A stretch of DNA of 64,000 nt from Flavobacteriales bacterium (GTDB lineage Bacteria; Bacteroidota; Bacteroidia; Flavobacteriales_F; PHOS-HE28), in the NCBI GenBank assembly GCA_031371785.1, contig JANMKC010000018.1, positions 4,266 through 68,265 of the forward strand. The letters are read 5' to 3'. The number at the start of each line of letters is the position of its first letter. Position 1 is the first letter of the stretch. The translations under genes were made by a program, and so were the position numbers. Of this stretch, positions 5,127 through 56,469 are shown in pieces. The notes beneath the pieces were generated by a model. It was not told where the DNA came from, made no database searches, and worked only from the letters and a program-made list of their open reading frames with translations.

Positions 5127-5908
5127 GGGTGACGCTCGTGCAGAACATGCTGCACTGGGAAGATGCGGCAACGAACCGTGCCATGTTCGCGGAGAAGCTC
5201 GCCGCATTGAAGGGCACCACGGACCTCATCGTGCTACCGGAAATGTTCACGACCGGTTTCAGCATGCGCAGCAGGGAACTCGCGGAGACAATGGATGGCG
5301 TTACCGTGAAGTGGATGATTGAGCAGGCGCTTGCATTGAACGCCGCGATCTATGGCAGTGTGATCATCGCCGACGGCGGCAACCATTTCAATCGCGGGCT
5401 GTTCGTTACGCCGTCAGGACAAGTCACAGCATACGACAAGCGCCACCTCTTCCGCATGGCGGAGGAGAAGGACAACTATGCGCGCGGCGACAAACGTGTG
5501 ATCGTGGAACTGAACGGCTGGCGGATCCTCTTGCAAGTGTGCTACGACCTTCGCTTTCCCGTCTTCGCACGCTCCCGCAGTATTGCGGGACGCAGCGACT
5601 ATGACGCGATCATCTACGCGGCCAACTGGCCGGAGGCTCGGCGTTACCCATGGAGCCAATTGCTGATCGCCCGCGCGATCGAGAACCAGTGCTGTGTGAT
5701 CGGCGTGAACCGCGTGGGCATGGATGGAAAAGGACACCACTACACAGGCGATTCCGTGGCGATCGATGCGAAAGGACAGGTGTTCGCTTCGTGCGATGCG
5801 GGCCAGGAACGTATCATCACTTGCTTGCTCGATCGCGCTGCGCTCGACGACTTCCGTGAGAAGTTCCCGGTGGAAAAAGACGCTGACGATTTCGAACTGC
5901 GCCTTTAG
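5114..5908 (+). CDS. yafV: carbon-nitrogen hydrolase family amidohydrolase (YafV-like omega-amidase)
   Basis: nitrilase-superfamily E-K-C catalytic triad contexts (PEMFTTGF..., KRHLF, CYDLRFP); 13-nt overlap with the upstream aminotransferase gene. Confidence 0.85.
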   Translation: MRDLRVTLVQNMLHWEDAATNRAMFAEKLAALKGTTDLIVLPEMFTTGFSMRSRELAETMDGVTVKWMIEQALALNAAIYGSVIIADGGNHFNRGLFVTPSGQVTAYDKRHLFRMAEEKDNYARGDKRVIVELNGWRILLQVCYDLRFPVFARSRSIAGRSDYDAIIYAANWPEARRYPWSQLLIARAIENQCCVIGVNRVGMDGKGHHYTGDSVAIDAKGQVFASCDAGQERIITCLLDRAALDDFREKFPVEKDADDFELRL

Positions 5909-8900
5909 CGCATGATCGTGACGTGGCCCATCTGGTTCTGCTCGAACCCTTCGGTGCCGTCCCGCTTCTCGATGAACTTGTAGCCCATCCGCCATACATA
6001 CACATCGTTGGGCGCTTCGGCACCGTTCACCTTCCCATCCCAACCCAGCGCAGGGTTGTCGGTATGGAAGATGACCGCGCCCCAGCGATCGAATACGTTG
6101 ATCTCGAACTGGCCGATGCTCTTTCCGACAACGTACCACACGTCGTTGATGCCGTCACCATTCGGTGTGAATGTGTTAGGCACATAAATGCTCGGCGGAC
6201 AGAACTCGTTGACCACCGCTGAATCCTGCTGGCTGCAATCGAACTGGTTGGTGATGCTGACATAGTACCAACCGTATGCTCCCGCAAGGATCACTTGCGT
6301 GTTCTCACCGGTGCTCCAATCGTAGTCGCTGCCATTGTTGCCCCCGCTGATCACCACGTAGTGCGGCTCTTCATCCAGACAGGTGAAGTACGCATGTGTG
6401 CTGAGACGTGAAGGTCGTGGATTGAACGTGGCGAAGAGGCTGTCCGCGCCAGTACAGAAACCGTTGTTCACCTGCACACTGTACGTTCCGGTATGCGCGA
6501 CGGAAATGCCTTGGGTATGCTCGCCGGTGCTCCAACTGAAAGCAGCACCGGGATTCCCGGCGTCGATGTCAAGGATGTCCCCTTGGCACAATACGGTATC
6601 GCGTCCGAGGTCCACCAACGGATAGCCAACGAGGGTTATGACCGCATCAAAACTGCTGCTGCAATGAGCGCTGTTGGTAACAACCACCGTGTATGTACCT
6701 GATGCATTGGCCAGGATCTGCTGCGTCGCCGCATTCGTATTCCACAGGTAGGTGCAACCCGCGTTGCCCGCGTCGAGCGTTACGGGTTGATCGATGCAGG
6801 AGGTGTGGTCGGCAAGCACATCCAGGGGAGAAGCGATCACCGCCAGCGTGATGGAATCACTGGCCGAACATCCGCCATTGCTGGCTTGCACGCTGTATGT
6901 GCCGCCGGTGGTCGCACTGATCGATTGGGTGTGCGCGCCGGTATTCCATGAATAACTGAGGCCGGGCACGCCTGCATCGAGCAGCAGTGACTGGCCTTGG
7001 CAAAGCGTGGTGTCCGGGCCGAGATCAAGGACGAGTACGGGCAGAAGCAGCACGTTCGCATCGAAGGTGGTGCTGCATTGTTGTGGTGTAGTGACGGTGA
7101 CACCATAGGTTCCGCTCTCCTGGACGATGATGCTCTGCGACATCGCTCCTGTGCTCCACAAGTAGGTGCAACCGGCATTGCCCGCATCCAGCGTCGGTGG
7201 TGCACTGACGCAGGTGGTCACATCCTGCAACACATCGATCGGCATCGCATTGAAGGCCACATGCACGGAGTCGGCACGATGACATCCTTGTGCGCTCGTC
7301 GCCGTCACACTGTAGGTGTTCGTCTGCGCCACGGTGATCTGTTGCGTGTTCTCGCTGGTGCTCCATAGCACGCCATTGCCGGGGCTGTTGGCGTCGAGCA
7401 CGAACGAATTCGCGCCGCACAGCGACGTATCAGGACCCAGCTCAAGGGCTGGCAGTGGGTGGATCGTGACGAAATAACTCTTCACCGCTTGGCAGCCCTG
7501 CTGATCGGTGATGGTGCAGATGTAGTTGCCCGATGTGGAGACCACGATGGTCTGCGACGTTTCATTGGTGTTCCAGTCATAGCTCGAACCGGGGAATTCG
7601 GCATCGAGGACGAGGCTTTGATCCGCGCAAGCGGAAAGGGTGATCGGAGTGATCATCGTGTCGAACGCATCGTTCACGCTCACCGAATCGCTCACGCCGC
7701 AGCCGAACGCATCGGTCACGGACACATGGTAGGTGGCTGTGGTATCGAAGAGGATCGTCGGGGACTGGATGTTCCCGGCGTTGAGCAAAGCGGCATCCGT
7801 CCACGTGATCGTCGGCGAGGGCACGTTGTTGATCACGTTCAACTGGAAGCCGTTCGTGTTGCAAAGGGTCTGGTCGTTACCGGCATCGATGGTATAGGCC
7901 GGGCTCACATCGATCGTGATCGCATCGCTGAGCGAGCAGCCGCTGGCGGTTTCGGTGGCGGTAGCGGTATAGGTCGTGTTCGCGGCAGGTGTCGCTGTGG
8001 TGTTCGGTGCGGTAAGGCTGCTGAGCGTGCTGTTGTTCGGTGTCCAAACGAGGCTGTATGGCGAACCACCGATCACGGTGGCTGTGAGCTGGCTGTGTTC
8101 GCCTTGGCAGAGATGCGGGTCGGTCGCGGCGACATCGATGCTTTGCAGCTGTCCCACGGTGATCGTCACTTGTGCATTGTCAGTGCAACCATGGTCCGTT
8201 GTGGCGTTCACCGTGTAAGTGGTGGTGGCCGCAGGTGTCGCGATGGGGTTGGCGATGGCCGCATTGTTCAGGCTGCCGTTGTTCGGGGTCCATGCATAGG
8301 TGACCCCGGTTCCCGAAGTCGGTGTGGCCTGCAATTGCACAGGTGTTCCTGCGGTGCAGATGGTGCTGTTCCCGCCCGTTACCACATCGAAGGCCGGAGC
8401 GACATTGATCGCGATCGAAGCGCTGAACTGGCAACCGCTCGCGTTCGTGGCGACTGCCGTGTAGGTCGTATTGCTCAACGGGGTTGCCAACGGCGTCGCC
8501 GATGTGCTGTTGTTCAACCCTGTTGTTGGCGACCAAGAGAAAGAGATCCCCGTATTGTCATAACGCGTGATCATCACGTTGTCGAGCGCCCAGTTGTCGG
8601 TGCCCGCGCCGGAGTTGTTCAGTTGCGTCCATCGGAAGCGGGTGCTCGTGGTCTGCGCGGCGGAAGGCACAGCCACGGTCACGTTGGTCCAGTTGGGAAA
8701 GGCCGCTTCGTTGAGCGTGGTGATCGGCGACCACGCCACACCGTCCGGACTGTACTCGATAAGCACATCGTCCCCCGGCTCGGCATCATCGCATGGCGGA
8801 GCGCCTGCCGCGATCCGCAGGCCGAAATGCAGGAACGCACCAGTGCTCATGTTCAAGGGACCTGTCAGCGCGCGACGCGTTCCGGCACCATCGAAGCGCA

Positions 8901-13177: not shown

Positions 13178-13924
13178 TCACGCGCAAGCGCAGGTGAACA
13201 CGCTGAGCTTGATGCCCGGCACCGCGGACAAGGCCATCGCGCATGCTTCGATCGTTGCGCCGGTGGTGATCACGTCGTCCACGAGAAGCACATGCGCGTT
13301 CCGCAATGCATCCGGATCGGCAACGTGGAACGCCTCCTTCACATTGCTCCATCGTTCCAAGCGGCCGCGTTTGGTCTGCGTCCGGGTACTCACCACACGC
13401 AGCAGTTCATCGCCGAGGTTCTTCAACGGCCATACCTCGCGCATGCCGTCCACCAGCACTTGTGCTTGATTGAAACCGCGCTGGTGCAGCTTGCGCGGAT
13501 GCAGTGGCACAGCGAGGGCCGTATCCACATCAGCGAAGCGGCGCGAGGACATCGTTTCGCGGGCCATGCGTCGGCCGAGTTCAAGGCCCACCTCGCGATC
13601 GCCCTTGTACTTCAGCCGGTGGAGCATGTGCTGTACCATGCCGTCGCGCGCGAATTGCAACATGGCGCTCGCGGCCATGAGCGGGAGTTTGCCCCAGAAC
13701 AACTGCTCCACCTTGTTGCGCGCATCGTCGTGGAAACGCGTGAGCGGCAGATCCTCCGCACAACGCAGGCAGATACTCTCCTCGAAGCGCATCAAGGCAC
13801 CGTCGCAGGCCGCGCATCGCCGGGGCAGAAAGAGGCCAACGAAATCGTAGAGTGCGTTATGTGAGGGCTGTTCCACGGGTTCAATACTTTGTTGAAAACG
13901 GCGGTGGGGCCGAAAAGTGCCCAT
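13178..13924 (-). CDS. comF: ComF family protein (phosphoribosyltransferase domain)
   Basis: N-terminal zinc-finger-like CAACDG...CLRC; C-terminal PRTase motif VLLVDDVITTGATI; the exact start is uncertain. Confidence 0.75.
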   Translation of the reverse strand: MGTFRPHRRFQQSIEPVEQPSHNALYDFVGLFLPRRCAACDGALMRFEESICLRCAEDLPLTRFHDDARNKVEQLFWGKLPLMAASAMLQFARDGMVQHMLHRLKYKGDREVGLELGRRMARETMSSRRFADVDTALAVPLHPRKLHQRGFNQAQVLVDGMREVWPLKNLGDELLRVVSTRTQTKRGRLERWSNVKEAFHVADPDALRNAHVLLVDDVITTGATIEACAMALSAVPGIKLSVFTCACA

Positions 13925-15132: not shown

Positions 15133-18100
15133 TCAGAAGAACGCGCGCACCTGTACGCCTCCGACATGGATCACGGGCGTGCCTTCGCTATGCCGTCCGT
15201 TGTAGGTGAGATCCAGCTGTAAGTGATCGCTGATGCGTCGCTGTATGCTGACGCTCCATGTGGCGTTGGCACCGGGCTTCAGGCCGCCGAGCATCTCGTT
15301 CCCAAGTGAAGATGAGGCCACACCATCGTATGAGATGTTCACGATATTGGTGTTCACTTGTATGGATCCCTTGCCCGCATTGTTGTAGCGCATCTCGACA
15401 CCACTGTCACGGATCGTCGCCTTTTCACCTCCAAGCTCCAAGCGGTTCTTTTTCTCGATGTACTTGAACTGGGCCGAAATGCGGAAGCTGGTACCGGGTT
15501 GCCACGTGAGTTTGGGCCGGGTGGCTTGTTGATCGATGGCGAAGGTGCGACCGCTGAGCAGATCGCTGTTGCTGTTGCTGCGGCCTTTTTCCCCTTCCAC
15601 TTCCAGCGTCCAGTGCGGCGTGGTGTTCCAGCGCACATGCACGATGTCGCTTTCCCGCAGCCGCGTCTCGAAGCCATTGAGCAGAAGACTCTTGTTGCGA
15701 TCGCTCTGGTGGCTGTGATCGATGCTCCATGTTTGGCTGCTGCGATCATAGTACACGGTGTTGCGCAACGATCCGGTGAAAGAGGTGAGCGCGGTGTCGG
15801 CGGGATCGAGCCGGAAGGGATCCAGCGCTTCCTCCACGCGATCGGCCCCTGTTTTTCGTTCGGTACGGAAGCTGGCCATGTCGCTCCATTTCCCGAGGAA
15901 TCCCTTGACCCCCTTCGCATCGGACCATACCGCATTGGGGCGAAGTTCAGCGGATGTGCTGAGCTGGTTGTTGAAGGTGCGCACGTACTGGTTCGTTTGC
16001 GTGTAAGCGCGGATGTAGTCCGCTTCGTAGCCGAAGTTCGCCACCTCGAATTCATTGAGCTCTTTGATGCCGTTGGCGTTGTAATCGATCCACACATACG
16101 TGCCCTGCCCGGCGGGCACCTGCACATAAATGAACTCGCGCCGTTGTTCGAGCCCGCTGCCGAGCTCATAGAACACATGCCAGTTGAACGCTCCTTTCCA
16201 GAGTGTGAGATCGTGTTCGATACGTGCAAGCCACGTGTCTTCCGGTTTTTGCGACACGATCGTGGTGTCGATGATGCGCAGGCTGCGATAGGTGAAGGTG
16301 AGCCCCAACCTCCTGCGCGGATCGGAACGCAGCGCCAGATCCGCTGAGTACGTGGTGGCTTCGGTGCTGCGGGCGAGCGCCCCGCCTCTCAACGCCTGCT
16401 CGTAGCGCTGACCACCGCTCAGGCCATAGTGTGTTTTCGCCGAATCGCTGTTCTGCGCGAAGGCGGTCCAATCGAAGAACTGGTAACTCCCCGCGATGAG
16501 CGCACCGCTCGTGTCGCTGCGGAAGCGGTTGCGCTCCTGCTCATCGCGTACGCCGATGGAGATCCATTTCATGTGCCGCGCGAAGCGTGCCTTGTGCCGG
16601 AGAAAATCGCTCACTACCGAGTTCGCCGAAGTGCTGAGCGCGCTACCGTCGACCGCCACGTCGTACTTGCCAGGATGCATATCGCATTCGAGCGACTGTC
16701 GGTATCCGGTGTAGCGCTGGGAGATCCGGAAGGTGGAAGAGGACAACTTCGCCACACCGCGCTTTCCTGCTCGCAGCGCCAGGCTCAGGCTCGCGAGCAT
16801 CTGGTCATTGTCCTGCGGAACGAGCAATGCGTTCCAATTGCGTTCGAACTCCACCGGGCGGAATCGCTCCACCGGACGGAAGGTTCGCGCGATCCACTCG
16901 TTGTCCGTGCCGAGCACCAATCGCAGCGTCGTATCCGAAGTGCTCAGCGGGAAAGCCTGTTCCGCCCCCGCGCGCAACGCCACACCCTGGTTGTCGCCAT
17001 CATCCGTCGAGCTGAACGTGTTGCGATCATCATTGCTCCAGGCCAGTTGTGTCCATGCCTTCGTGCGGTCCCCGAACCGGTGGGCAGCTCCTATCTCAAT
17101 AACCTGCTGCGCGCGTGGCGGCACCAATACACGCACAGGGGCATAGTTGCCGCGATGCACGATCGCCCCCCCCACCGTATCCGGCCCCAGCCATTGGAAC
17201 ACGCGCCCGTTCGGGGTGAACTCTTGCTGGACATAATCGCCTTTGCCCGCGCCCACCACACTGAACGATACGCGGTAGTGCGCGCTGTCGGTGTTCGTGT
17301 TGTATACATAGACCGGATCGTAGCCGAGCGAATCGCGCTTCAGGTAGAGCACTTCGTCCACGCTGAACGCGACACTGTCAACACCGGGTGTGGTAGCTGC
17401 GAGCGGATCATCACCCGCCGCCGTTAGCGCGCGCTTGTCCGCATCGGAAAGTGTTTGCTGCAACGGTTGGTTCTTGCTGTCCTGTTCGGTGTACACATCG
17501 GCATGCAGTTCGGTACGGCCGAGTACCCATGCGTTGGAAAGTCGCACCAACGAGCGTGCGTAGTTCTTGTCGCTGTACTGGAACTCCACCGTGATGCGCC
17601 GGTCCTTCGTGATCAGGCGCTTGGTGGTGAAGGTGACCTCCGCCGTGTTGTAGTCGATCACGTAATCATTCTCCTGCCCACGTGACAAGAGCTGACCATC
17701 CACGAAGACGCGCTCGGTACCGCTGAGCACGATGATGAAGAGTCCACCGTCCTCGGAGTTCAACCGGTACGGGCCTTGAACGCCTTCGATCCCCTGGATG
17801 ATGTTGCGCGCGAACTTGCCTTTGCTGATCGCCGCGCTGATGGCCAGCGAACCGTGCGCGCCGTCCTCCTTTCCGAGCAACGTGGAATAACCGATGCCTT
17901 TCGTTTTTTTGAGGTACGTGAGGAAGTGGCTCTTGGGGCGTTCAAGCACGAAGTCGCCCGCGATCAGTTCCTGCCGCTCGTCATAGAGCTTGATGAACAC
18001 GCGATCGAAATCCTGCAGTTCCGCCGTATTGCCCCCCGCCTGTATCGGGATGTTGTTGTCGGTGACCGAAGCGAGCACGCTGATGTGCTCGGTGAGTTTC

Positions 18101-43162: not shown

Positions 43163-43470
43163 ACCCCCTCTAACTCCCCCGGTGGGGGAGGACCTGAAAA
43201 CCGATCAAGACAACTCCGAGAGAAAGTAGACACGGTTCCAACATGGTCGGCCCCTTCCCCACCGGGGAAGGTTTGGGATGGGGTCGCATTGAACACTTGC
43301 CCGTTGATGATCTGCTGAAGACGACCGACGAAAACGAAGAGACCGAAGACCACCTTTCCGATCCCGCTCGCAACCACTTTGTCAGTTCGAGCGAAGTCGA
43401 GAACCCACATAAACCACTACCCCGAAGGCGAAGCGGGAGCCGAGCCGAAGGACCAAAACCAACACGAAGC

Positions 43471-46035
43471 ATGTATGTAGTCAAACGCGACGGACGCCGG
43501 GAGGCGGTGAAATTCGACAAGATCACTGCCCGTGTGAAGAAGCTCTGCTATGGGCTCGATCCCATGGTGGATGCCACACAGGTCACACTGAAAGTGATCG
43601 ACGGCATCTTCGACGGTGTCACCACCACGGAGCTCGATAACCTCACGGCGGAAGTCGCGGCCACCATGACGGTGAAGCACCCGGACTACGCACAGCTCGC
43701 CAGCCGCATCGCGGTGAGCAACCTGCACAAGAACACCAAGAAGTCCTTCAGCGAGGTGATGAAGGACCTCTACGAATACCTCGACCCGAAGACCGGTGCG
43801 CGCGCCAGCCTTCTCGCTGATGATGTCTATACCATCATCAAGGAGAACGCGGATCATCTGGACAGCTCCATCATCTACGACCGCGACTTCACCTACGACT
43901 ACTTCGGTTTCAAGACGCTCGAGCGCAGTTATCTCTTGCGTCTGCACGGCAAAGTGGCCGAGCGTCCGCAGCACATGCTGATGCGCGTGGCCATCGGCAT
44001 CCACAAGAACGATCTCGACAGCGCGATCGAGACCTACAACCAATTGAGCGAAGGCTGGTACACGCACGCCACGCCCACGCTCTTCAACGCGGGTTCGCCG
44101 AAGCCGCAGATGAGCAGCTGCTTCCTCTTGCAGTTGAAGGACGACAGCATCAGCGGCATCTACGACACGCTGAAGCAATGCACGCAGATCAGCCAGAGCG
44201 CCGGCGGCATCGGCCTCAGCATCCACAACCTTAGGGCGAAGGGCAGCTACATCAAAGGCACCAACGGTACCAGCAACGGCATCGTACCGATGTTGCGCGT
44301 GTTCAACGACACCGCGCGTTACGTCGATCAAGGCGGTGGAAAGCGCAAGGGCTCGTTCGCCATCTACATGGAGCCGTGGCATGCGGACATCGAAGATTTC
44401 CTGGAGCTGAAGAAGAACCACGGCAAGGAGGAAATGCGCGCGCGCGACCTCTTCTATGCGCTGTGGATCCCGGACCTCTTCATGAAGCGCGTGGAGCAGA
44501 ACGCCGACTGGACACTGATGTGCCCGAACGAGTGCCCCGGCCTCGCGGACACCTGGGGAGAGAAGTTCGAAGAGCTGTACGAGAAGTACGAGCAGGAAGG
44601 ACGCGGTCGCAAGACGATGAAGGCGCAGGACCTCTGGTTCCACGTGCTGGAAAGCCAGATCGAAACGGGCACGCCCTATATCCTCTTCAAGGACGCTGCC
44701 AACCGCAAGAGCAACCAGCAGAACCTCGGCACCATCAAGAGCAGCAACCTCTGCACGGAGATCATCGAGTACACCAGCGCGGATGAAGTGGCGGTGTGCA
44801 ACCTCGGTTCCATCGCCTTGCCGAAGTTAGTGGAGCGTGGATCCTTCAATCACAACAAGCTCTTCGAAGTGACGCTGCAGTTGACGAAGAACCTCAACCG
44901 CGTCATCGACGAGAATTTCTATCCGATACCCGAAGCGCGCCGCAGCAACATGCGCCACCGCCCCATCGGCATCGGCGTGCAGGGCCTGGCGGATGCTTTC
45001 ATCCTGATGCGCTACGCCTTCGACAGCGTGGAAGCGAAGGTGCTGAACCGCGAGATCTTCGAAACCATCTACTACGCCGCGCTCACCGCGAGCAAGGATC
45101 TCGCGAAAGAACACGGCGCGTACGAGACCTATGAGGGGAGCCCGATGAGCAAGGGCGTGCTGCAGTTCGACATGTGGGAAGGCGTGAAGCCATCCGATCG
45201 CTGGGAGTGGGACATCCTGCGCGAGGAGATCAAGAAGTACGGCATACGCAACAGTCTGCTGCTCGCCCCGATGCCCACGGCGAGCACCGCGCAGATACTC
45301 GGCAACAACGAGTGCTTCGAGCCTTACACCAGCAACCTCTACACGCGGCGCGTGCTGAGCGGCGAGTTCATCGTGGTGAACAAGTACCTGCTGCGCGACC
45401 TGGTGAAGCTCGGCCTGTGGAGCGAGGAGATCAAGAACAAGATCATCGCCGCGAACGGCAGCGTCGCACATATCCCGGAGATCCCGCAGAACCTGAAGGA
45501 CCTCTACAAGACCGCCTGGGAGATCAGCCAGAAGACCATCATCGACATGGCGGCGGACCGCGGCGCGTACATCTGCCAGAGCCAGAGCCTGAACATCTTC
45601 ATGGAGAACGTGAACTTCGCCAAACTCACCAGCATGCACTTCTACAGCTGGAAGGCCGGCCTGAAGACGGGCATGTACTACCTGCGCACCAAGGCCGCCA
45701 CCGACGCCATCAAGTTCACGCTGGACAAGGCAACCATACAGAAATCAGCCGCTGCGGAAGTGGCCTCGAAGGCCCACGCGAACGGTGTTGCTGTGGGTAC
45801 AACCGTGATGCTCGACCCCGTGATGAGTGGACCCGTGATCGCTTCACGCAATGGCCTGTACGCAACTGCGGAGCAGCACGAAACCGAAACCCTGGTGGAA
45901 GAAGCGGGCGAACGCAACGGACCTGTGGAGAACGGCATGGCTGCGCACCGTGTGGCTGCTATGAGCGCAGATGCGCAAGCGCAAATTGCTTGCTCGCTGG
46001 ATGATCCCGATAGTTGTGAGATGTGTAGCGGGTAG
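43471..46035 (+). CDS. nrdA: ribonucleoside-diphosphate reductase subunit alpha (class Ia)
   Basis: ATP-cone N-terminus [18 protein letters not shown]; active-site ...SNLCTEI...; C-terminal cysteine tail ...CEMCSG. Confidence 0.95.
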
Positions 46036-46080
46036 AGGAATCGATTGAGGGCATTGTGAAAAAATGAGCCAACAGCTATC

Positions 46081-46515
46081 ATGCTTGGCGGAGTATTTGA
46101 CAGTTGGAAATTGAAGGTCTACTATACGCAGGCGTTGAGCGAGTATTCCGTTCTTCGACGAAGAGGATTTTCAGACTTGGATGCAAAGATTCACCTACTG
46201 AAGCTGGATCTTGAATTGAACAGCAGCATCGGAATTAGCTCGGCCATCAAGCAACGAGTTGAGGAACTAGATGTGCTGGGCGAAATCCAATTCATGGTCT
46301 GGTTCAATGCCTCACTGAAAACGAAGTGCCCTCGCATACCCATAGTCAAAAACATTAATGAGTTCGTTCGTGAAAGAAGTGTGTTGAGCGACATTGCGTT
46401 TCACTCTGGTGATTGGTGGGTGATCAAAGCGGACCTCAAGGATGACAGCCTTCCATCAGAAAGGGAATTCAATGATCTCGGCAAGGAACTAGCTGAACGA
46501 TTCCTCCTTGCGTAG
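46081..46515 (+). CDS. hypothetical protein A (low-GC island gene)
   Basis: 144-aa ORF at ~42% GC; its stop TAG is immediately followed by the ATG of the next gene. Confidence 0.5.
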   Translation: MLGGVFDSWKLKVYYTQALSEYSVLRRRGFSDLDAKIHLLKLDLELNSSIGISSAIKQRVEELDVLGEIQFMVWFNASLKTKCPRIPIVKNINEFVRERSVLSDIAFHSGDWWVIKADLKDDSLPSEREFNDLGKELAERFLLA

Positions 46516-47046
46516 ATGAATACCGCACCGCTCTCCTATGTATCGAAATTCGACTACTATGCTGTTCGTGACTCCCTTGGCCAAGAGGCGAGTCGGTCCG
46601 GTTTGAACACGGACATCATCAAGTCGATCCACGAAGTGTTCAAAGAGATTGAAGATGTTCACTATCTCAATGCGGTCCGTACCGACGCGACCCGATTGCG
46701 CGCAAGTCTGTTCCATTTGAAAGGTATGCGCTTGCTGCTGGATTTGAAAGCCATGGACTGCCCTGAGCAAATTTTGTCTCGGACTTCCGATCTCTTCATT
46801 GACCACTTTCTCAAGCTCACGGTTGCGTCTGTGAACACGGCGACGACAGCCAACCAACAGCTAAAGAACTTCACTGCCCTGGTGTCTATTCAGGCTGGGA
46901 TGAACGGAATAGAAGAATTGCTTCAATTGCGCCCGTCTGTTGAAGCAGCTTTGGCCATGGCGGCGATCGATCAAGACCTAAGGAAGCTTTTCATCGTTGT
47001 TCACCCGGTTGCACAACAGGAGATAGCGAATAGAGGTAAGCAATAA
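46516..47046 (+). CDS. hypothetical protein B (low-GC island gene); alpha-helical with an Rx4H HEPN-like motif
   Basis: 176 aa; RASLFH (Rx4H) is embedded in a helical context. Confidence 0.5.
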   Translation: MNTAPLSYVSKFDYYAVRDSLGQEASRSGLNTDIIKSIHEVFKEIEDVHYLNAVRTDATRLRASLFHLKGMRLLLDLKAMDCPEQILSRTSDLFIDHFLKLTVASVNTATTANQQLKNFTALVSIQAGMNGIEELLQLRPSVEAALAMAAIDQDLRKLFIVVHPVAQQEIANRGKQ

Positions 47047-47110
47047 CAGCATCCATCATAGACAAGCATGCACGCTCGTGTGCTTGCTGAACGACGCAAT
47101 GAGAGGGGGC

Positions 47111-47803
47111 CTATGTCGTGAAGGAGAGGTTTGTCTTGTCCTCCACAATTAACCTGTAGCCGGGAGTTCTCCCTCGTCGCTCAATCTCAAGCTTCCCGGT
47201 CGCTTTGACTGTTCCGCTATACTGGCCAGACACGAACTTTTTGACGAAGGCCAGCGTCATGCCGGACATGTCCAGTACTTCAACTGGAACGCTACAGCCC
47301 AAGAAGGTGAAGCCATTGGAAAGCTCCATGATCGCCCCCTGCTCCTTGATCTGGCCGGTAAGTGTCACGACTTGATTCTCGTAGCGCCCGGACTGAACAT
47401 CCGCACTTGTCAATGCAGAAGCATTGATCTCAATTGGCTTAGGCTTTGATTCACCTCCCCACATGCTCATGGGCCTTTTGCCAGCCGCCTGTCTCAATTG
47501 ATCTCGAACCTTATCAACACGATAAGAAAGAATCAGGCTTCGGTACTGAATGGCGACCAAGATATGCTGGCATGCCTGGATGTCGCCGCTCTTCTCCAAA
47601 TCCACCAAAAGAACCGCCAGTTCCTGAACCCGATGCGCATCGATCAACTTGCGCATTTCGTTCGAGAGCATCTGATAGCTCGCCTTGTTCTCGCGCTGTC
47701 GGAATGAATTGAAGCGCCAGAGCACAATGACGACTATGATCAGGACTATCCAGAGCATGCGAGTCGGAAGTGGTTGGAACAAGTGTAGCGAACTTTCCTC
47801 CAT
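47111..47803 (-). CDS. membrane-anchored protein with a C-terminal OB-fold (tRNA_anti-like) domain
   Basis: N-terminal TM helix MLWIVLIIVVIVLW; C-terminus ...YENQVVTLTGQI...GQYSGTVKATGKL... is OB-fold-like. Confidence 0.55.
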   Translation of the reverse strand: MEESSLHLFQPLPTRMLWIVLIIVVIVLWRFNSFRQRENKASYQMLSNEMRKLIDAHRVQELAVLLVDLEKSGDIQACQHILVAIQYRSLILSYRVDKVRDQLRQAAGKRPMSMWGGESKPKPIEINASALTSADVQSGRYENQVVTLTGQIKEQGAIMELSNGFTFLGCSVPVEVLDMSGMTLAFVKKFVSGQYSGTVKATGKLEIERRGRTPGYRLIVEDKTNLSFTT

Positions 47804-48139
47804 GCCATGGCTCTCCCAGCGGACACCTGTTCTATGCCGCGACTCGATCAACGACAGTGAATACGGGCAAAAACGAAGAGCATGAAATCCTAACTTCGAA
47901 GCAAACTTGCGGAAGCATGCGTAGCCGGAGTGTTGAACGCGAAGTTTGCGAAGACAAGCTGTGGGAAGTTCAGAAGGCATTGATCAGGGTCAACGGCATT
48001 CTTGACCAACCAAGCTTGGAAAACAGAGCGGTGTACATGAGCCAAAAGAAGGGCTTGGAAGAACAACGCGAAACATTGTCTGTGGAGATCGATCGACTCA
48101 CCGTCGGCATGTGACAATCTCGAAGTACCCGACCATAGC

Positions 48140-48421: not shown

Positions 48422-48484
48422 ACCCCATCTGCGCGAGTCTGCCAGACTTGTCCAGTTGGCCCCCAATCTCGCGCGAGTGTTAGG

Positions 48485-48549
48485 CCTCTGGCGGTGAACA
48501 AGTCTCGCGAACAGATGGCCAGAGGCAAAGAACGACCTTGCCGATCGGC
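48485..48549. repeat. 65-nt direct repeat H, copy 1, with an internal 9-bp-stem hairpin
   Basis: 63 of 65 nt identical to 49863-49927; stem gcctctggc (48484-48492) / gccagaggc (48518-48526), loop 25 nt. Confidence 0.85.
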
Positions 48550-48575
48550 TTGAGCAAGGCGAGCGACGGGATGGA

Positions 48576-48848
48576 TCAATACACCTCGTCGTGCGTTCCG
48601 ATGTCGATCAGCAGCACCTTGCTCTGGCCCTTGAGGAAAACGAATACCACGCGGCAGTCGTGGTCCACGCTGAACGCCCAGCAATGGCTGAGCTTCCCGG
48701 TGAGCTTGTGCGTCATAAGCCCGGCGGCGAAAGGGTCCGATGCGAAGAGCTGTAGTGCGTCCCAGAACCGTTGCTTCAGCAACGCATCAGGGCTGATGCG
48801 CTTATTATAGGAACGCTTGAAGCCTGCATCCCAAACCAGCTCGATCAT
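48576..48848 (-). CDS. type II toxin-antitoxin system RelE/YafQ-family toxin
   Basis: ...KLTGKLSHCWAFSVDHDCRVVFVFL...LLIDIGTHDEVY. Confidence 0.8.
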   Translation of the reverse strand: MIELVWDAGFKRSYNKRISPDALLKQRFWDALQLFASDPFAAGLMTHKLTGKLSHCWAFSVDHDCRVVFVFLKGQSKVLLIDIGTHDEVY

Positions 48849-49057
48849 GCTTCCAGGTCCTTGCGCAGGTCGGAGACCTTGCCCTTGCGCACCTTGCGCG
48901 CCTTGAGGTTCCGAGCGGCCATCTTCACGCGGATAACCAGCGCCTCCCGCGCGGCCTCCGCATAAGCCTTACGAATGATGCCAGCGGCGTACTCCTTCTC
49001 CTCCATGGGCAGGGCATCGAACTGCTCGATCACCGTATTGATGTCCTGGGTTCTCAT
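48845..49057 (-). CDS. antitoxin (RelB/DinJ-like) paired with the RelE-family toxin
   Basis: 70-aa gene overlapping the toxin start by 4 nt; TATCTTTG promoter-like motif ~20 nt upstream. Confidence 0.6.
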   Translation of the reverse strand: MRTQDINTVIEQFDALPMEEKEYAAGIIRKAYAEAAREALVIRVKMAARNLKARKVRKGKVSDLRKDLEA

Positions 49058-49090
49058 GGAGTTGGAAGTATGCTTCAAAGATAGGAGGCC

Positions 49091-49182
49091 GATACCCCCG
49101 ATCTCCCCCCCGAACACACGCTCGGGTGCGGCGCATCTCCGCCGCTCGGCTTATCCGCAAGCAACAAAGTCTGCCGATCGGC
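49091..49182. promoter_or_regulatory. ~93-nt repeat U, copy A (shared upstream element of the antitoxin genes)
   Basis: ~87% identical to 49754-49846; lies 34 nt upstream of the antitoxin ATG, next to a TAnnTTTG-like motif. Confidence 0.6.
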
Positions 49183-49200
49183 GGGATCGAAGTTGCCGCA

Positions 49201-49500
49201 CTATTTCTTCCGCTTGAACTTCTTCTTGGGGTCTTGGCTGGTGTGGAAGATGCGGTACACGACGATGGCATCGTCGAACACTTCGTAGATGATCACGAAC
49301 GGAAAGCCGTCCAACGGTGCTTGCCGGAAACGCTTGTACACGACCTGGAACCCTTTCGGGAACTGCACGATGTACTTCGCACAGTTCTCCACTTCAGCAA
49401 GGAAACGTTCATCAAGCCCAATCTGTCGTTGCCGATACCACCACATGGACTCCGCGATGTCCGTGTCGGCATCATCGCGGTAGATGAGCTTGCGGTTCAT
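49201..49500 (-). CDS. type II toxin-antitoxin system ParE/RelE-family toxin
   Basis: ...ESMWWYRQRQ...LDERFLAEVE...FPFVIIYEVFDDAIVVYRIFHTSQDP. Confidence 0.8.
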   Translation of the reverse strand: MNRKLIYRDDADTDIAESMWWYRQRQIGLDERFLAEVENCAKYIVQFPKGFQVVYKRFRQAPLDGFPFVIIYEVFDDAIVVYRIFHTSQDPKKKFKRKK

Positions 49501-49727
49501 CCACGCGCTGCTTTGCGTGCGCGTCGTCTCATTTGTTCCGGCGTGTAGCTCTTCCCTTCGCCGCGCAGGTAGCGTTTGCGCGCTTCATCCAATTCGGCTT
49601 TTTGCTCATCGCTCAGTTCGAAGCGGGTGCCGTGGTTCATGATCATATCCACGGAGCGCAACTGCGATTCGCTTTCGGTATCGAGGATCTGCTTGGCCAG
49701 CGCGACTTTCAGTTCAGTGAGCTTCAT
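49497..49727 (-). CDS. antitoxin (putative addiction-module component) paired with the ParE-family toxin
   Basis: MKLTELKVALAKQILDTESESQLRSV...SDEQKAELDEARKRY; 4-nt overlap with the toxin; TAGTTTTG motif upstream. Confidence 0.65.
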   Translation of the reverse strand: MKLTELKVALAKQILDTESESQLRSVDMIMNHGTRFELSDEQKAELDEARKRYLRGEGKSYTPEQMRRRARKAARG

Positions 49728-49753
49728 GCGGGTCGTTGTTGCCCCAAAACTAC

Positions 49754-49846
49754 GATGCCCCGATCGCACCACCTCCGAACCCACGCTCGGGTGCGGTGCA
49801 TCTCCGCCACTCGGCTTGACCGCGAGCAACAACGTCTGCCGCTCGG
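49754..49846. promoter_or_regulatory. ~93-nt repeat U, copy B
   Basis: see 49091-49182. Confidence 0.6.
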
Positions 49847-49862
49847 TGTGCGGTGCGTTCCG

Positions 49863-49927
49863 CCTCTGGCGGTCAACAAGTCTCACGAACAGATGGCCAG
49901 AGGCAAAGAACGACCTTGCCGATCGGC
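49863..49927. repeat. 65-nt direct repeat H, copy 2
   Basis: see 48485-48549; stem 49862-49870 / 49896-49904. Confidence 0.85.
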
Positions 49928-49971
49928 CTCATCACAGATAGGAAAAGCCCAGCGGCAGGATGGAGAAGAGT

Positions 49972-50173
49972 TCAGAAATGGATCGATAGCACAGCAGCGA
50001 GCCCTTCGCGGATCGGTTCCATCACCGTTGCGCTCACAACGCCAACTCGTTCGGTAAAGCGGTGCTCGCTGATCGAGCGCACTTGGAAACAGTCCGCCGC
50101 TGAAACCTTGCTGAGTTTGTTCTTCGCGTCCGGCGTGATGCGCACTTTCCAAGGAACTTGGGCATAGTGCATC
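49972..50173 (-). CDS. small hypothetical protein (67 aa)
   Basis: high-GC3 ORF MHYAQVPWKVRITPDAKNKLSKVS...; family not recognised. Confidence 0.3.
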
Positions 50174-50327
50174 GCAGGTTCAGGCAGGTTCGATCCCTTG
50201 TTTTCATCCCCGGTAGTGAGCGACACGTTCGACCTGCACTTATGAACTTGCGATAGAGGCAAAACTCTTTCTAGAATGCATGAGTCAGGAACAGGGATTG
50301 CTGCGGTAGCTGCATAACCTGAACACC

Positions 50328-50477
50328 ATGAGCCAGAAGAAAAGAACAGTCGCACCCCACGCCAAGCCTCCCGGCCTCGGTCGCAGCGCCATTACCGGCC
50401 GCTTCATGAGCGTGGCCGCTGCCAAGGCGCATAAGAAGACTGCCATCGTGATGGGCGGGAGGAGCGGAAAGAAATAG
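50328..50477 (+). CDS. small basic hypothetical protein (49 aa)
   Basis: MSQKKRTVAPHAKPPGLGRSAITGRFMSVAAAKAHKKTAIVMGGRSGKK; below the ORF-track length cut-off; speculative. Confidence 0.25.
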   Translation: MSQKKRTVAPHAKPPGLGRSAITGRFMSVAAAKAHKKTAIVMGGRSGKK

Positions 50478-54435: not shown

Positions 54436-55122
54436 ATGGACAAGCTCCGCGCGATCGATCCCCTGGGTGCTGACTGGACCCTGCTCATCCTGCTGGTGGC
54501 GCTGGGCACCTTGGGGTGGATCAATCTGGTATCGCCGAAGAAGTGGCGTCTGCTTGTGCGCTCGTTCTTCAGCTACCGGCTAGGCCGCCAAACGCTGCGC
54601 GATGAACTCGATCTGCAGGATCGCACATTGATCGGCCTGGCGATCATGGCCTGCGGTACGATAGCGCTCTTCCTCTACCAGGTCGCCGTGCTGCGCGGCG
54701 GACTTGTGGCGGGCTTCGGGCCATGGTCGCGCCTCTTTGGTGTGTGTCTTGGTGTGCAGGTGGCGCAAGTCCTTGTCGTGCGCTTGGTCGGTCTGCTGGT
54801 GGAAGCGGACAGCGGTCTGTCGGAATACCTCTTTACCCTGCTGCTTTTCCATGTGGCCTTGGGCATTGTGCTGTTACCGATCGCTGGCGTAATGGCGTTC
54901 CCACATGTGTTCTCATGGCGCGCATGGCTGCCATGGGCGGGCGGGCTGTTGGTGGCTGTGGTGGTAGGCTTCCGGTGGGTGCGGGCGGCCGTGGTCGGGC
55001 TGGGTGAGGGGGTACCTCTCCGCTACATTTTCATTTACCTTTGCGCCCTTGAAATTCTGCCTGCCGCATTGGCATTCCAGCACGTGAGGCAACTCGTTCC
55101 TACACCGTCCCACACCCTCTAA
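54436..55122 (+). CDS. DUF4271-like membrane protein
   Basis: polytopic membrane protein directly upstream of hemD, the conserved Bacteroidota arrangement. Confidence 0.65.
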   Translation: MDKLRAIDPLGADWTLLILLVALGTLGWINLVSPKKWRLLVRSFFSYRLGRQTLRDELDLQDRTLIGLAIMACGTIALFLYQVAVLRGGLVAGFGPWSRLFGVCLGVQVAQVLVVRLVGLLVEADSGLSEYLFTLLLFHVALGIVLLPIAGVMAFPHVFSWRAWLPWAGGLLVAVVVGFRWVRAAVVGLGEGVPLRYIFIYLCALEILPAALAFQHVRQLVPTPSHTL

Positions 55123-55136
55123 GCTGAGCGGCCTTG

Positions 55137-55895
55137 ATGAAGACCAAGTCCATCCTCGTTACCCAGCCTGAGCCTACGGACGACAAGAACCCTTATGCCG
55201 ATCTGGCCAAGAAGTTCAGTTTGAAGATCGACTTCCGGGCCTTCATCAAGATCGAAGCGGTGCCGGGACAGGAGTTCCGCCAGGAACGGATCAACGTACT
55301 GGACCACTCGGCCATCGTGCTCACCAGCCGCAATGCGGTGGACCACTTCTTCCGCATGTGCAAGGAGTTGCGCCTCACCGTGCCGGAAAGCATGAAGTAT
55401 TTCTGCGTAAGCGAAAGCGTCGCCTACTATGTGCAGAAGTACATCGTGTACCGCAAGCGGAAAGTGTTCATCGGCAAGCAGAGCTTCGGCGACCTGATGG
55501 ATGTGATCAAGAAGCACAAGGAGGAGCGCTACCTCGTACCGTGCAGCGATATCCAGAAGCAGGAGATCCCCGCTTTGCTGGACAAGGCTGGCGTGCAGTA
55601 CACCAACGCGGTCTTCTATCGCACAGTGGCCAGCGACCTTAGCGATATGAAGGACCTGGCGCACGACATGCTCGTGTTCTTCAGCCCCGGTGGCATCGAG
55701 AGCCTGCGAAGGAACTTCCCGAAATTCAAGCAGAACGGCACCGTGATCGCCGCTTTCGGGCCTACCACCGCAAAGGCCGTGAAGGACGCGGGGTTCCGTT
55801 TGGACATCGAAGCGCCCATGCCCGAAGCACCCAGCATGACCGGTGCCATCGAACTGTACATGAAGAAGGCTGCCAAGGAGGCGAAGAAGAAATAG
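55137..55895 (+). CDS. hemD: uroporphyrinogen-III synthase
   Basis: KSILVTQPEP...; HemD fold-typical ~250 aa. Confidence 0.8.
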   Translation: MKTKSILVTQPEPTDDKNPYADLAKKFSLKIDFRAFIKIEAVPGQEFRQERINVLDHSAIVLTSRNAVDHFFRMCKELRLTVPESMKYFCVSESVAYYVQKYIVYRKRKVFIGKQSFGDLMDVIKKHKEERYLVPCSDIQKQEIPALLDKAGVQYTNAVFYRTVASDLSDMKDLAHDMLVFFSPGGIESLRRNFPKFKQNGTVIAAFGPTTAKAVKDAGFRLDIEAPMPEAPSMTGAIELYMKKAAKEAKKK

Positions 55896-55902
55896 GTCTC
55901 GA

Positions 55903-55999
55903 CTGCGCTCGACCTGACAAATACGGCTGCGCTCGACCTGACAAATACGGCTCCGCTCGACTTGACAAATACGGCTCCGCTCGGCTTGACAGATGATCG
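55903..55999. repeat. tandem 24-bp direct repeats (about 4 units), each containing a (T/C)TGACA motif
   Basis: ctgcgctcgacctgacaaatacgg twice exactly, then ctccgctcgacttgacaaatacgg, then a degenerate fourth unit. Confidence 0.85.
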
Positions 56000-56067
56000 A
56001 CCGTGCCAAGGGTGCTTGATCCGCGAAGCCCGGTCCACAACACGGATAACCGCTGAACACGCGTTCC

Positions 56068-56469
56068 ATGCCAGCCGCACGACCTCGCGCTACCTTCCGC
56101 AAGAACGAACGCCTCACTGGCCGCGACGCCATCAACGCGGTAGTGAAGAACGGATGCGCCATGAACGAAGCACCTTTCCGCATTGTGGGCCTCATCACCT
56201 CCCTTGATTCCACATCTCCGACGCAAGTGGCCTTCGCCATACCGAAGCGCTATGTGCATGACGCCGTGGACCGGAACCTGATCCGCCGCCGGATACGCGA
56301 GGCTTACCGCATGGACAAGGAGCGCTGGTACGCGCCGCTGCGCGCCGCGGATAAACAATGCGCCTGGCTGCTCATCTACCAGTCTTCACATTCGTTGGCG
56401 TTCACCGAAACGCGCAGCAGACTTTCCAGCGTTCTGGACCGTTGGCTCAAACAGCATCTTGCCCCATGA
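56068..56469 (+). CDS. rnpA: ribonuclease P protein component
   Basis: basic protein [16 protein letters not shown]...AFAIPKR...[13 protein letters not shown]. Confidence 0.85.

Follow-up and report, generated by a model that had tools for sequence, protein, structure and literature searches.

We analysed a stretch of 64,000 nucleotides (nt) from a Flavobacteriales bacterium (GenBank assembly GCA_031371785.1, contig JANMKC010000018.1, positions 4,266 to 68,265 of the forward strand; hereafter the window), in which two toxin–antitoxin (TA) operons stand among direct repeats shortly after the ribonucleotide reductase gene nrdA (43243–46035, with downstream DNA from 46036). The window is an ordinary piece of chromosome, with genes for RadA, GlmS, pantoate ligase, a class II aminoacyl-tRNA synthetase, both ribonucleotide reductase subunits and an acyl-CoA dehydrogenase, as well as for proteins with type-9-secretion sorting domains, and the top homologues of its nrdA all come from Flavobacteriales metagenome-assembled genomes (MAGs). 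Read along the minus strand, the locus consists of a truncated MazF, H2, U_B, antitoxin2–ParE, U_A, antitoxin1–RelE-like toxin and H1, where H and U are repeats that fill the spacers; a short palindromic junction core adjoins H1. These features are located as follows.

48458..48488, minus strand: junction core, GCCTAAC-ACTCGCGCGAG-ATTGGGGG, an imperfect palindrome that contains GTTAGGC and directly abuts H1
48479..48575, minus strand: H1, a 65-nt repeat with a hairpin of 9-bp stem and 25-nt loop (48485–48549), plus weaker homology up to the RelE stop codon
48576–48848, minus strand: RelE/YafQ/YoeB-like toxin of 90 amino acids (aa), with sub-threshold matches alone, to YafQ, RelE/StbE and YoeB
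48845–49057, minus strand: antitoxin1, matching no family
48576..49093, minus strand: RelE cassette unit, comprising a −7 box (49076–49083), antitoxin1 and the RelE-like toxin
49089..49200, minus strand: U_A, the U copy that fills the spacer from the ParE stop codon to the RelE cassette, with the palindrome GCCGATCGGC at its 5′ edge
49201–49500, minus strand: ParE (Pfam ParE_toxin, 34.8 bits against a cut-off of 23; PDB ParE2, E=3.8e-5)
49497–49727, minus strand: antitoxin2, weakly similar to PF09720/TIGR02574
49201..49758, minus strand: ParE cassette unit, comprising a −7 box (49745–49752), antitoxin2 and ParE
49754..49862, minus strand: U_B, the second U copy, directly 3′ of H2 on the minus strand
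49857..49964, minus strand: H2, the second H copy (central part 49863–49927), plus weaker homology towards the stop codon of the MazF remnant
49972..50172, minus strand: truncated MazF/PemK-like toxin remnant of 66 codons, whose Pfam PemK_toxin match covers profile positions 49–109 of 109

Each toxin gene overlaps its upstream small open reading frame (ORF) by 4 nt, the arrangement of type II TA systems in which a small toxin of the ParE/RelE fold follows an overlapping small antitoxin gene. The assignment of ParE is secure; the RelE-like toxin joins this class by its sub-threshold matches alone, and its AlphaFold model was too poor for use (predicted local distance difference test score of 49). 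The two pairs are unrelated in sequence (E=6 between them). The motif TAnnTTTG, the −7 box of Bacteroidota promoters, occurs nine times in the 64 kb, counting both strands, and two of these copies lie 18–19 nt upstream of the antitoxin ATGs, inside cassette-specific DNA, and are kept where the cassettes occur in other contexts. The MazF/PemK remnant is a decayed third cassette upstream of H2. Over its surroundings (49972–50355) the N-terminal half of the toxin is gone and no recognisable antitoxin lies upstream, and a 49-aa basic ORF stands on the opposite strand just beyond it (50328–50477); at this end the array looks decayed.

The H repeat (48479–48556 versus 49857–49934) is 91% identical over 78 nt and contains a 65-nt central alignment (48485–48549 versus 49863–49927) with 63 of 65 positions identical and an exact run of 42 nt. 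The hairpin within it, GCCTCTGGC-N25-GCCAGAGGC, is found solely at 48484–48526 and 49862–49904, with no match in 100 shuffles. Weaker homology runs on (16/20, p=0.005) to just after the stop codons of RelE and the MazF remnant, and the 10-bp palindrome GCCGATCGGC of the U_A edge recurs at the 5′ edge of H. We also considered H as an intrinsic terminator and rejected it: a weak 5-bp stem with TTCTTTG stands at its 5′ edge, and the 9-bp hairpin has no subsequent T-run. The interior from H2 to H1 is present at 100% identity in three independent Logan assemblies. One Logan contig (L001, SRR20217206), equal to window 49927..48520 on the minus strand, is 1408 nt long with identical first and last 30 nt; it forms a closed cycle of 1378 nt that runs from the start of H2 through both cassettes to H again, the 30 nt being k−1 for k=31. 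Because two direct repeats produce just such a cycle in a de Bruijn graph, this contig is compatible with a circular or tandem form and is not evidence for one.

The U repeat (49107–49181 versus 49772–49846) is 88% identical over 75 nt, and gapped alignment extends its homology to around 110 nt, roughly 49089–49200 versus 49754–49862, beginning at the preceding stop codon or at H2 and reaching to around 30 nt ahead of the promoter box. The two H copies are 1378 nt apart and the two U copies 665 nt apart, an aperiodic spacing that disfavours simple tandem duplication. Along the array the modules succeed one another as H2+U_B, then U_A alone (after the ParE 3′ end), then H1+core; in place of the regular period of a tandem duplication, the spacers show a mosaic whose breakpoints lie between the modules. 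A preliminary description of the stretch had already reported the minus-strand gene order, two unrelated TA operons, a TAnnTTTG-like −7 motif before each antitoxin ATG, the 63/65 identity of H1 and H2, the conserved 9-bp-stem hairpin in each H and an identity of around 87% between U_A and U_B, all of which the gene calls, alignments and shuffles bear out. Of its RelE/ParE typing, the ParE half holds above the Pfam cut-off and the RelE half is a matter of sub-threshold likeness.

Further copies of H and U, a search for which the same description had proposed, were found neither elsewhere in the window nor in the collections searched. The H hairpin pattern had 2 matches in 185,579 species genomes and 4 in JGI metagenomes, all of them chance matches with other spacing and loops; in IMG/VR, exact patterns of U, H and the core had no match and a degenerate core had 34 chance matches in coding DNA; blastn of the whole segment against plasmids and phages returned no match; and Rfam at E≤1 over 44–54 kb returned a single chance microRNA match. 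A likeness of H and U to elements on the related contigs L011, L012 and L018 (below), seen by eye, was withdrawn when shuffle tests gave p>0.05 for all; in these tests the core part of junction C alone was significant. H and U are thus private to this genome, with no detectable homologue in the collections searched.

We compared the DNA downstream of nrdA among related genomes. In the closest relatives compared, L017 and L018, nrdA is 88.6% identical to that of the window at the nt level, and the similarity to the window ends exactly at the nrdA stop codon (position ~12550 in both), beyond which the DNA is entirely different. L017 and L018 are 98% identical to each other upstream of that stop, but their downstream DNA is not alike either. 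In this clade of uncultured Flavobacteriales, the DNA behind nrdA is thus a hypervariable hotspot, with cassette-like genes set apart by lineage-specific repeats that have one short palindromic core in common. In the window, the G+C content at 46–48 kb (46001–48000) is 0.50 versus 0.57–0.62 elsewhere, and ORFs 46081–46515, 46516–47046 and 47111–47980 match no Pfam family; the DNA that separates nrdA from the cassettes may therefore be foreign.

Both operons recur elsewhere as units. An exact-protein look-up found the antitoxin1 protein also on a JGI contig (L010) and on a longer ENA contig (L011), in a different setting. The 3′ end of L011 is 74% identical to the end of nrdA and a neighbouring small gene is 72% identical, both of them ordered and oriented with respect to the cassettes as they are in the window; L011 is the syntenic locus of a different organism. 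The antitoxin1–RelE unit (window 48576–49093; L011 955–1472) is 94% identical over 518 nt, as against 72–74% for the flanking genes. On L011 this unit comes after a VapBC cassette and not after ParE, and its toxin has a premature stop (hereafter RelE*). The L011 array comprises at least five co-oriented units, namely VapBC, RelE*, orf159–orf217, a 77-aa antitoxin with ParE, and orf170; no Pfam family was found for its non-TA ORFs. Its ParE is 68% identical to that of the window and, counted outward from nrdA, the RelE and ParE cassettes stand in opposite order in the two loci. The antitoxin2–ParE unit, in turn, is 91% identical on contig L012 (window 49454–49758 versus L012 2727–3031), where it lies behind unrelated genes and the match runs to the contig end.

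In these comparisons the shared homology begins 31–38 nt upstream of the antitoxin ATG, with the −7 box included, and ends at or near the toxin stop codon. As the limits fall at spacers in every case, the operons are discrete units; both turn up in other contexts, and in another order on L011, broken at the spacers and with edges that are approximately alike. Such units have been exchanged between genomes that are otherwise around 25% divergent. The modular, cassette-like assembly suggested in the preliminary description is supported by this recurrence, and its question of whether relatives carry the segment has a twofold answer: entirely different DNA past nrdA in the closest relatives, and the RelE unit with other neighbours on L011. 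A related ParE cassette (toxin 59% identical) was also seen on L013, a contig of the Flavobacteriales MAG GCA_016710965.1 (9550–9630 and 10538–11610), where an IS110-family transposase gene lies to one side of it and the 5′ end of the same element, in a second copy, to the other; H, U and the core are all absent from this locus.

The 3′ end of ParE gives rise to a further repeated stretch, the P module.

49192..49253, minus strand: P module, the last 46–50 nt of ParE plus around 10 nt past its stop, 93–100% identical to L011 758–818 and 1501–1556

On L011 the last ~50 nt of a ParE gene, with ~30 nt beyond, occur twice as non-coding orphans (758–840 and 1501–1583), one behind VapC and one behind RelE*. 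The truncation point is shared by the two, between GCC and TCTTCCACACC, and the orphan therefore travelled within a repeated spacer unit. A role of the ParE 3′ end as a recombination site at the nucleotide level was weighed, given identities of 89–96% in nt between ParE genes that are 43–59% identical as proteins, and was rejected: this identity is not evidence, because FHTSQDPKKKF is conserved as protein and uses preferred GC-rich codons. Of the P-module copies, only the non-coding orphans of L011 are informative.

In contrast to the private H and U, the element beside H1 is shared. The 25-nt core in the window (48461–48485), fused to the 3′ edge of H1, is 96–100% identical to the junction copies of L010 and L011, and its 20-mer is exact and unique in the window. 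On L011 every junction has GCCTAAC-ACTCGCGCGAG-AT[TC][AG]GGGG in one orientation, once as three tandem copies, and the consensus across related genomes is GCCTAAC-ACTCGCGCGAG-ATYRGGGG, an imperfect palindrome with one copy in the window. A hidden Markov model built from eight copies recovered the window copy at E=2e-8 (nhmmer) together with five copies on L011, two on L018 and one on L017, all downstream of nrdA; it had no other significant match in the 64 kb of the window or across the ~12.5 kb of each of L017 and L018 up to the nrdA stop. At 25/25 between the window and L011, the core is more conserved than the flanking genes. Its arms are unequal in length (GCC-T-AA-CA-CTCGC versus GCC-CCC-AA-T-CTCGC) and would give bulges. 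The core marks the junctions of cassettes in at least three related lineages and has been found only downstream of nrdA.

In L017 and L018 the spacers hold another repeat family of around 185 nt, which begins a few bases after ORF stops and whose full copies end in the same core, as CGCCTAACTCTTG[CG]GCCAGATCA[AG][AG]GG.

L018 14055–14218, 15198–15283, 15979–16103 and 18967–19128: copies of the ~185-nt repeat
L017 16965–17126 and 22331–22447: copies of the ~185-nt repeat

One L018 copy can form a 16-bp stem that pairs GCGCGGGAGTTAGCCG with the core (z=−2.45); the other copies do not do so consistently. A second small repeat in the variable region of L018, AAC[GT]GGCGCGAGCG-NCCT-TCGCTCGTGCCC[CG]TG, forms a hairpin with a 13-bp stem at 13363–13395, 15166–15198 and 17754–17786.

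We give about an even chance to the reading in which a small, non-canonical array of gene cassettes occupies the hypervariable slot and the segment is its end nearest nrdA, with the spacer repeats serving as recombination substrates. The repeats, the cassette units and their recurrence in other contexts, the hypervariability of the slot and the conserved, locus-restricted core are directly shown by the comparisons. Each cassette is autonomous, with its own −7 promoter box, antitoxin and toxin, and the DNA between cassettes, from the preceding toxin stop codon to around 30–40 nt before the next antitoxin ATG, consists of GC-rich, hairpin-prone repeats. The private spacer modules H and U would have been copied as cassettes were added, to leave the order MazF remnant, H2–U_B, ParE cassette, U_A, RelE cassette and H1–core. 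Cassettes would be gained and lost by recombination inside the spacer repeats; the direct H copies, with their 42-nt exact run, bound a 1378-bp two-cassette unit that recombination between them could delete as a circle or could have inserted. This could be recombination of the RecA type, joining spacers once DNA has been taken up, or the work of a recombinase that is encoded elsewhere and targets the palindromic core. As in chromosomal integrons, the TA pairs probably stabilise the block by addiction, penalising its loss. A more ambitious version, which we consider rather unlikely, would have a non-integron cassette-capture system in this Flavobacteriales clade: an nrdA slot with promoter-bearing TA and ORFan cassettes, delimited by a 25-nt palindrome of unequal arms within lineage-specific hairpin repeats and moved by a recombinase encoded elsewhere that acts on the core, H and U being the variable part of the site.

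Several observations weigh against the cassette-array reading. Pfam annotation of the plausible ORFs of the 64-kb window revealed no recombinase, transposase or integrase domain, and with the whole window free of any recombinase, the mechanism is one that we infer. The cassette edges are not base-precise across contexts, with left-edge differences of 16 nt and 6 nt and, beyond the RelE stop codon, a patch of 17 nt that is non-homologous. Folding of H and U is little or no more favourable than that of shuffles (z of −0.8 to −1.4 for the H hairpin), and compensatory base changes in U, at 0 of 29 pairs, give no support for a conserved structure. With two copies each and no homologue, H and U may be passive by-products rather than recombination substrates. 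Finally, the comparative evidence is thin, drawn from four related lineages.

Among other explanations, a purely local duplication or gene conversion of an ancestral spacer, by unequal crossing-over or slippage, would account for two copies per repeat that all lie inside 1.5 kb, for the lack of a homologue in the collections searched and of a recombinase nearby, and, if recent, for the 97% identity of H; the repeats would then have no role in mobility and the likeness to an array would be coincidental. We regard this as unlikely, since the coding parts between the repeats are unrelated, the arrangement is aperiodic and not the product of plain tandem duplication, both operons occur independently elsewhere as units with breakpoints at spacers, and the slot is a demonstrated hotspot in relatives. 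Quite unlikely, too, is that H and U are dispersed intergenic repeats unconnected with cassette movement, akin to repetitive extragenic palindromes (REPs) and bacterial interspersed mosaic elements (BIMEs) or to miniature inverted-repeat transposable elements. Their mosaic, modular composition (H+U, U alone, H+core), hairpin-bearing elements placed right after stop codons and lineage-specific sequence would fit such a family, as would the transposase beside the related ParE cassette on L013, the IS110 family being reported to target REP-like repeats. However, REP and BIME copies are scattered chromosome-wide, and all H, U and core copies fall within 48.4–50.0 kb of the window, with none in its other 62.5 kb, which is rich in intergenic gaps, and none in the ~12.5 kb (upstream flank plus nrdA) of L017 or L018. 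This confinement to the slot makes a REP-like family unlikely; moreover, H and U have no terminal inverted repeats or target-site duplication, and the window encodes no REP-associated tyrosine transposase or other transposase. Highly improbable is an assembly artefact in which the 1378-bp unit was a separate circular or tandem molecule, or came from elsewhere, and was threaded in through the 42-nt run in H. The closed Logan cycle would be its natural signature, yet two direct repeats yield the same cycle in a de Bruijn graph, two positions distinguish H1 from H2 and neither of their flanks is shared, as with genuine chromosomal copies, and L011 has the same kind of array contiguously.

The remaining alternative is a genuine integron array without a neighbouring integrase (CALIN), in which H, U and the core would be attC sites folded as single strands and the integrase IntI would be encoded elsewhere. 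An attC site is an imperfect hairpin closed by complementary 5′-RYYYAAC (R″) and GTTRRRY-3′ (R′) with conserved AAC/GTT (PMC5027507), and by the published definition also has an L box and unpaired features, namely extrahelical bases, an unpaired central spacer and a variable terminal structure, in asymmetric positions relative to AAC (PMC5027507, PMC4889954). A CALIN comprises at least two sites in the same orientation less than 4 kb apart, each after a cassette ORF (PMC4889954). An adjacent integrase, a tyrosine recombinase bearing the IntI-specific insertion, is demanded of a complete integron and not of a CALIN. H, U and the core are arranged in this way, although they are not demonstrably attC. 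The resemblance to integron arrays, CALINs and the TA cassettes of sedentary chromosomal integrons such as the Vibrio superintegron goes further: short co-oriented cassettes, many of them ORFan or TA and the TA cassettes with their own promoters, are each followed by a hairpin-prone repeat of 60–190 nt in one orientation; the repeats are homogeneous within a genome and different between lineages; and cassette content and order vary among related genomes. GCCTAAC conforms to RYYYAAC, the attC consensus, and the tail of the core, ATTGGGG/GTTGGGG, is similar to GTTRRRY. CALINs occur commonly, most of them without intI pseudogenes (PMC4889954); in Bacteroidetes integrons are rare, with one report of an integron from this group (PMC9024848).

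Unlike integron arrays, this one has no paired R box. A scan for paired RYYYAAC...GTTRRRY frames (exact AAC/GTT, at least 3/4 degenerate positions, R-box pairing of at least 6/7, L boxes) gave no match on either strand of the window, L011 or L012, versus 0–8 in shuffles, and no core copy has a canonical L box. H has GTT on its 5′ arm and AAC on its 3′ arm on either strand, as does the long hairpin of L018, which is the reverse of attC polarity (PMC5027507); the AAC and GTT boxes of U_A pair at only 3/6 positions; and most junction tails are ATT or ATC instead of the conserved GTT. The sole attC-looking stretch, L011 3642–3700, was tried as a 50-nt site (GCCTAAC-5-CGCGAGA...TCTCGCG-3-GTTGGGG) and rejected, as it is better taken for three tandem cores and fails R-box pairing. 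Cassette edges here do not fall at a fixed point between G and TT and differ by 6–17 nt between contexts, and the spacers are mosaics with mid-spacer breakpoints, whereas integrons exchange the last 6 nt. No tyrosine recombinase was found in the Pfam annotation of L011, L013, L017 or L018, and the relatives' loci had no transposase. Neither they nor the window held a pseudogene of a tyrosine recombinase. With IntI1 and XerD as queries, six-frame tblastn (control, IntI1 versus XerD, E=3e-26) gave a best E of 1.8 in the window and L010–L015 and of 0.45 in L017/L018.

The array logic is integron-like, and membership among integrons is not supported; we hold a CALIN to be very unlikely. The attC or integron-like identity advanced in the preliminary description is not supported: the paired frame is missing, the polarity of H is reversed, no recombinase was found in the window or the relatives' loci, and H folds no better than shuffles. 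The description's statement that the window holds no integrase was correct by both Pfam and tblastn. The GTTAGGC heptamer that it took for an isolated attC R′ core does lie beside H1 (48479–48485) and is the reverse complement of the first seven bases of the core, and so belongs to the 25-nt junction core.

The cassette-array reading may also be set beside other known systems. REPs measure around 35 nt and number in the hundreds, scattered along the chromosome; proteobacterial REPs and BIMEs share with the elements described here the GC-rich imperfect palindromes after stop codons and the mosaics of modules, and differ in that ours are 65–185 nt long, occupy one slot and delimit units that move between genomes. 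The pdif modules of Acinetobacter plasmids are Xer-dependent and often carry TA genes, with 28-bp sites (11-6-11) that follow the dif consensus in alternating orientation. They resemble our array as small, often TA modules bounded by short palindromic sites with the recombinase encoded elsewhere, but the core has no dif-like arms, its arms are unequal, all copies are direct and the locus is chromosomal; on inspection against the dif consensus, neither the core nor H nor U shows 11-bp XerC/XerD arms around a 6-bp spacer. In the intergenic mosaic or minimal mobile elements of Neisseria, alternative cassettes are exchanged at a fixed slot by transformation and homologous recombination. The fixed chromosomal slot between conserved genes and the mosaic repeats in its spacers are alike, but there is no sequence relationship and the palindromic core has no counterpart there. 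An IS200/IS605 passenger would have a subterminal hairpin at either end, both in direct orientation, together with a Y1 transposase or with many copies that lack one. Direct hairpins bracket the segment; the window has no Y1 transposase, no other copies were found, and by comparison the inner cassettes move separately.

Other features of these loci were noted in passing. The listed 930-aa nrdA ORF of the window (43243–46035) is over-extended at its 5′ end; its homologues are 793–908 aa long and cover 81–94% of it, and the true start therefore lies around 75 codons downstream. At 55900–55994 a 24-nt unit, CGGCTGCGCTCGACCTGACAAATA, is repeated head-to-tail over around 95 nt, inside or beside ORF 55119–56240, which has no Pfam family. 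On L011, a 326-aa protein with a weak TIR_2 match (E=0.001) is encoded between nrdA and the array (5375–6355, minus strand), possibly a defence gene in the same slot.

Among systems that stockpile single-gene cassettes, integrons are, to our knowledge, the only one that is well understood, and Bacteroidota almost lack them. The slot after nrdA follows integron logic, with autonomous co-oriented cassettes, lineage-specific hairpin repeats and cassette exchange at around 25% divergence, but with other site features and no integrase. If the repeats are mere by-products of homologous recombination in a hotspot, the locus would be an ordinary TA island. Its interest is moderate as it stands and would become high were a dedicated recombination system shown to act on the 25-nt core, a defined, testable candidate site. 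The slot could represent a second way in which genomes of an abundant environmental phylum are kept plastic through cassettes.

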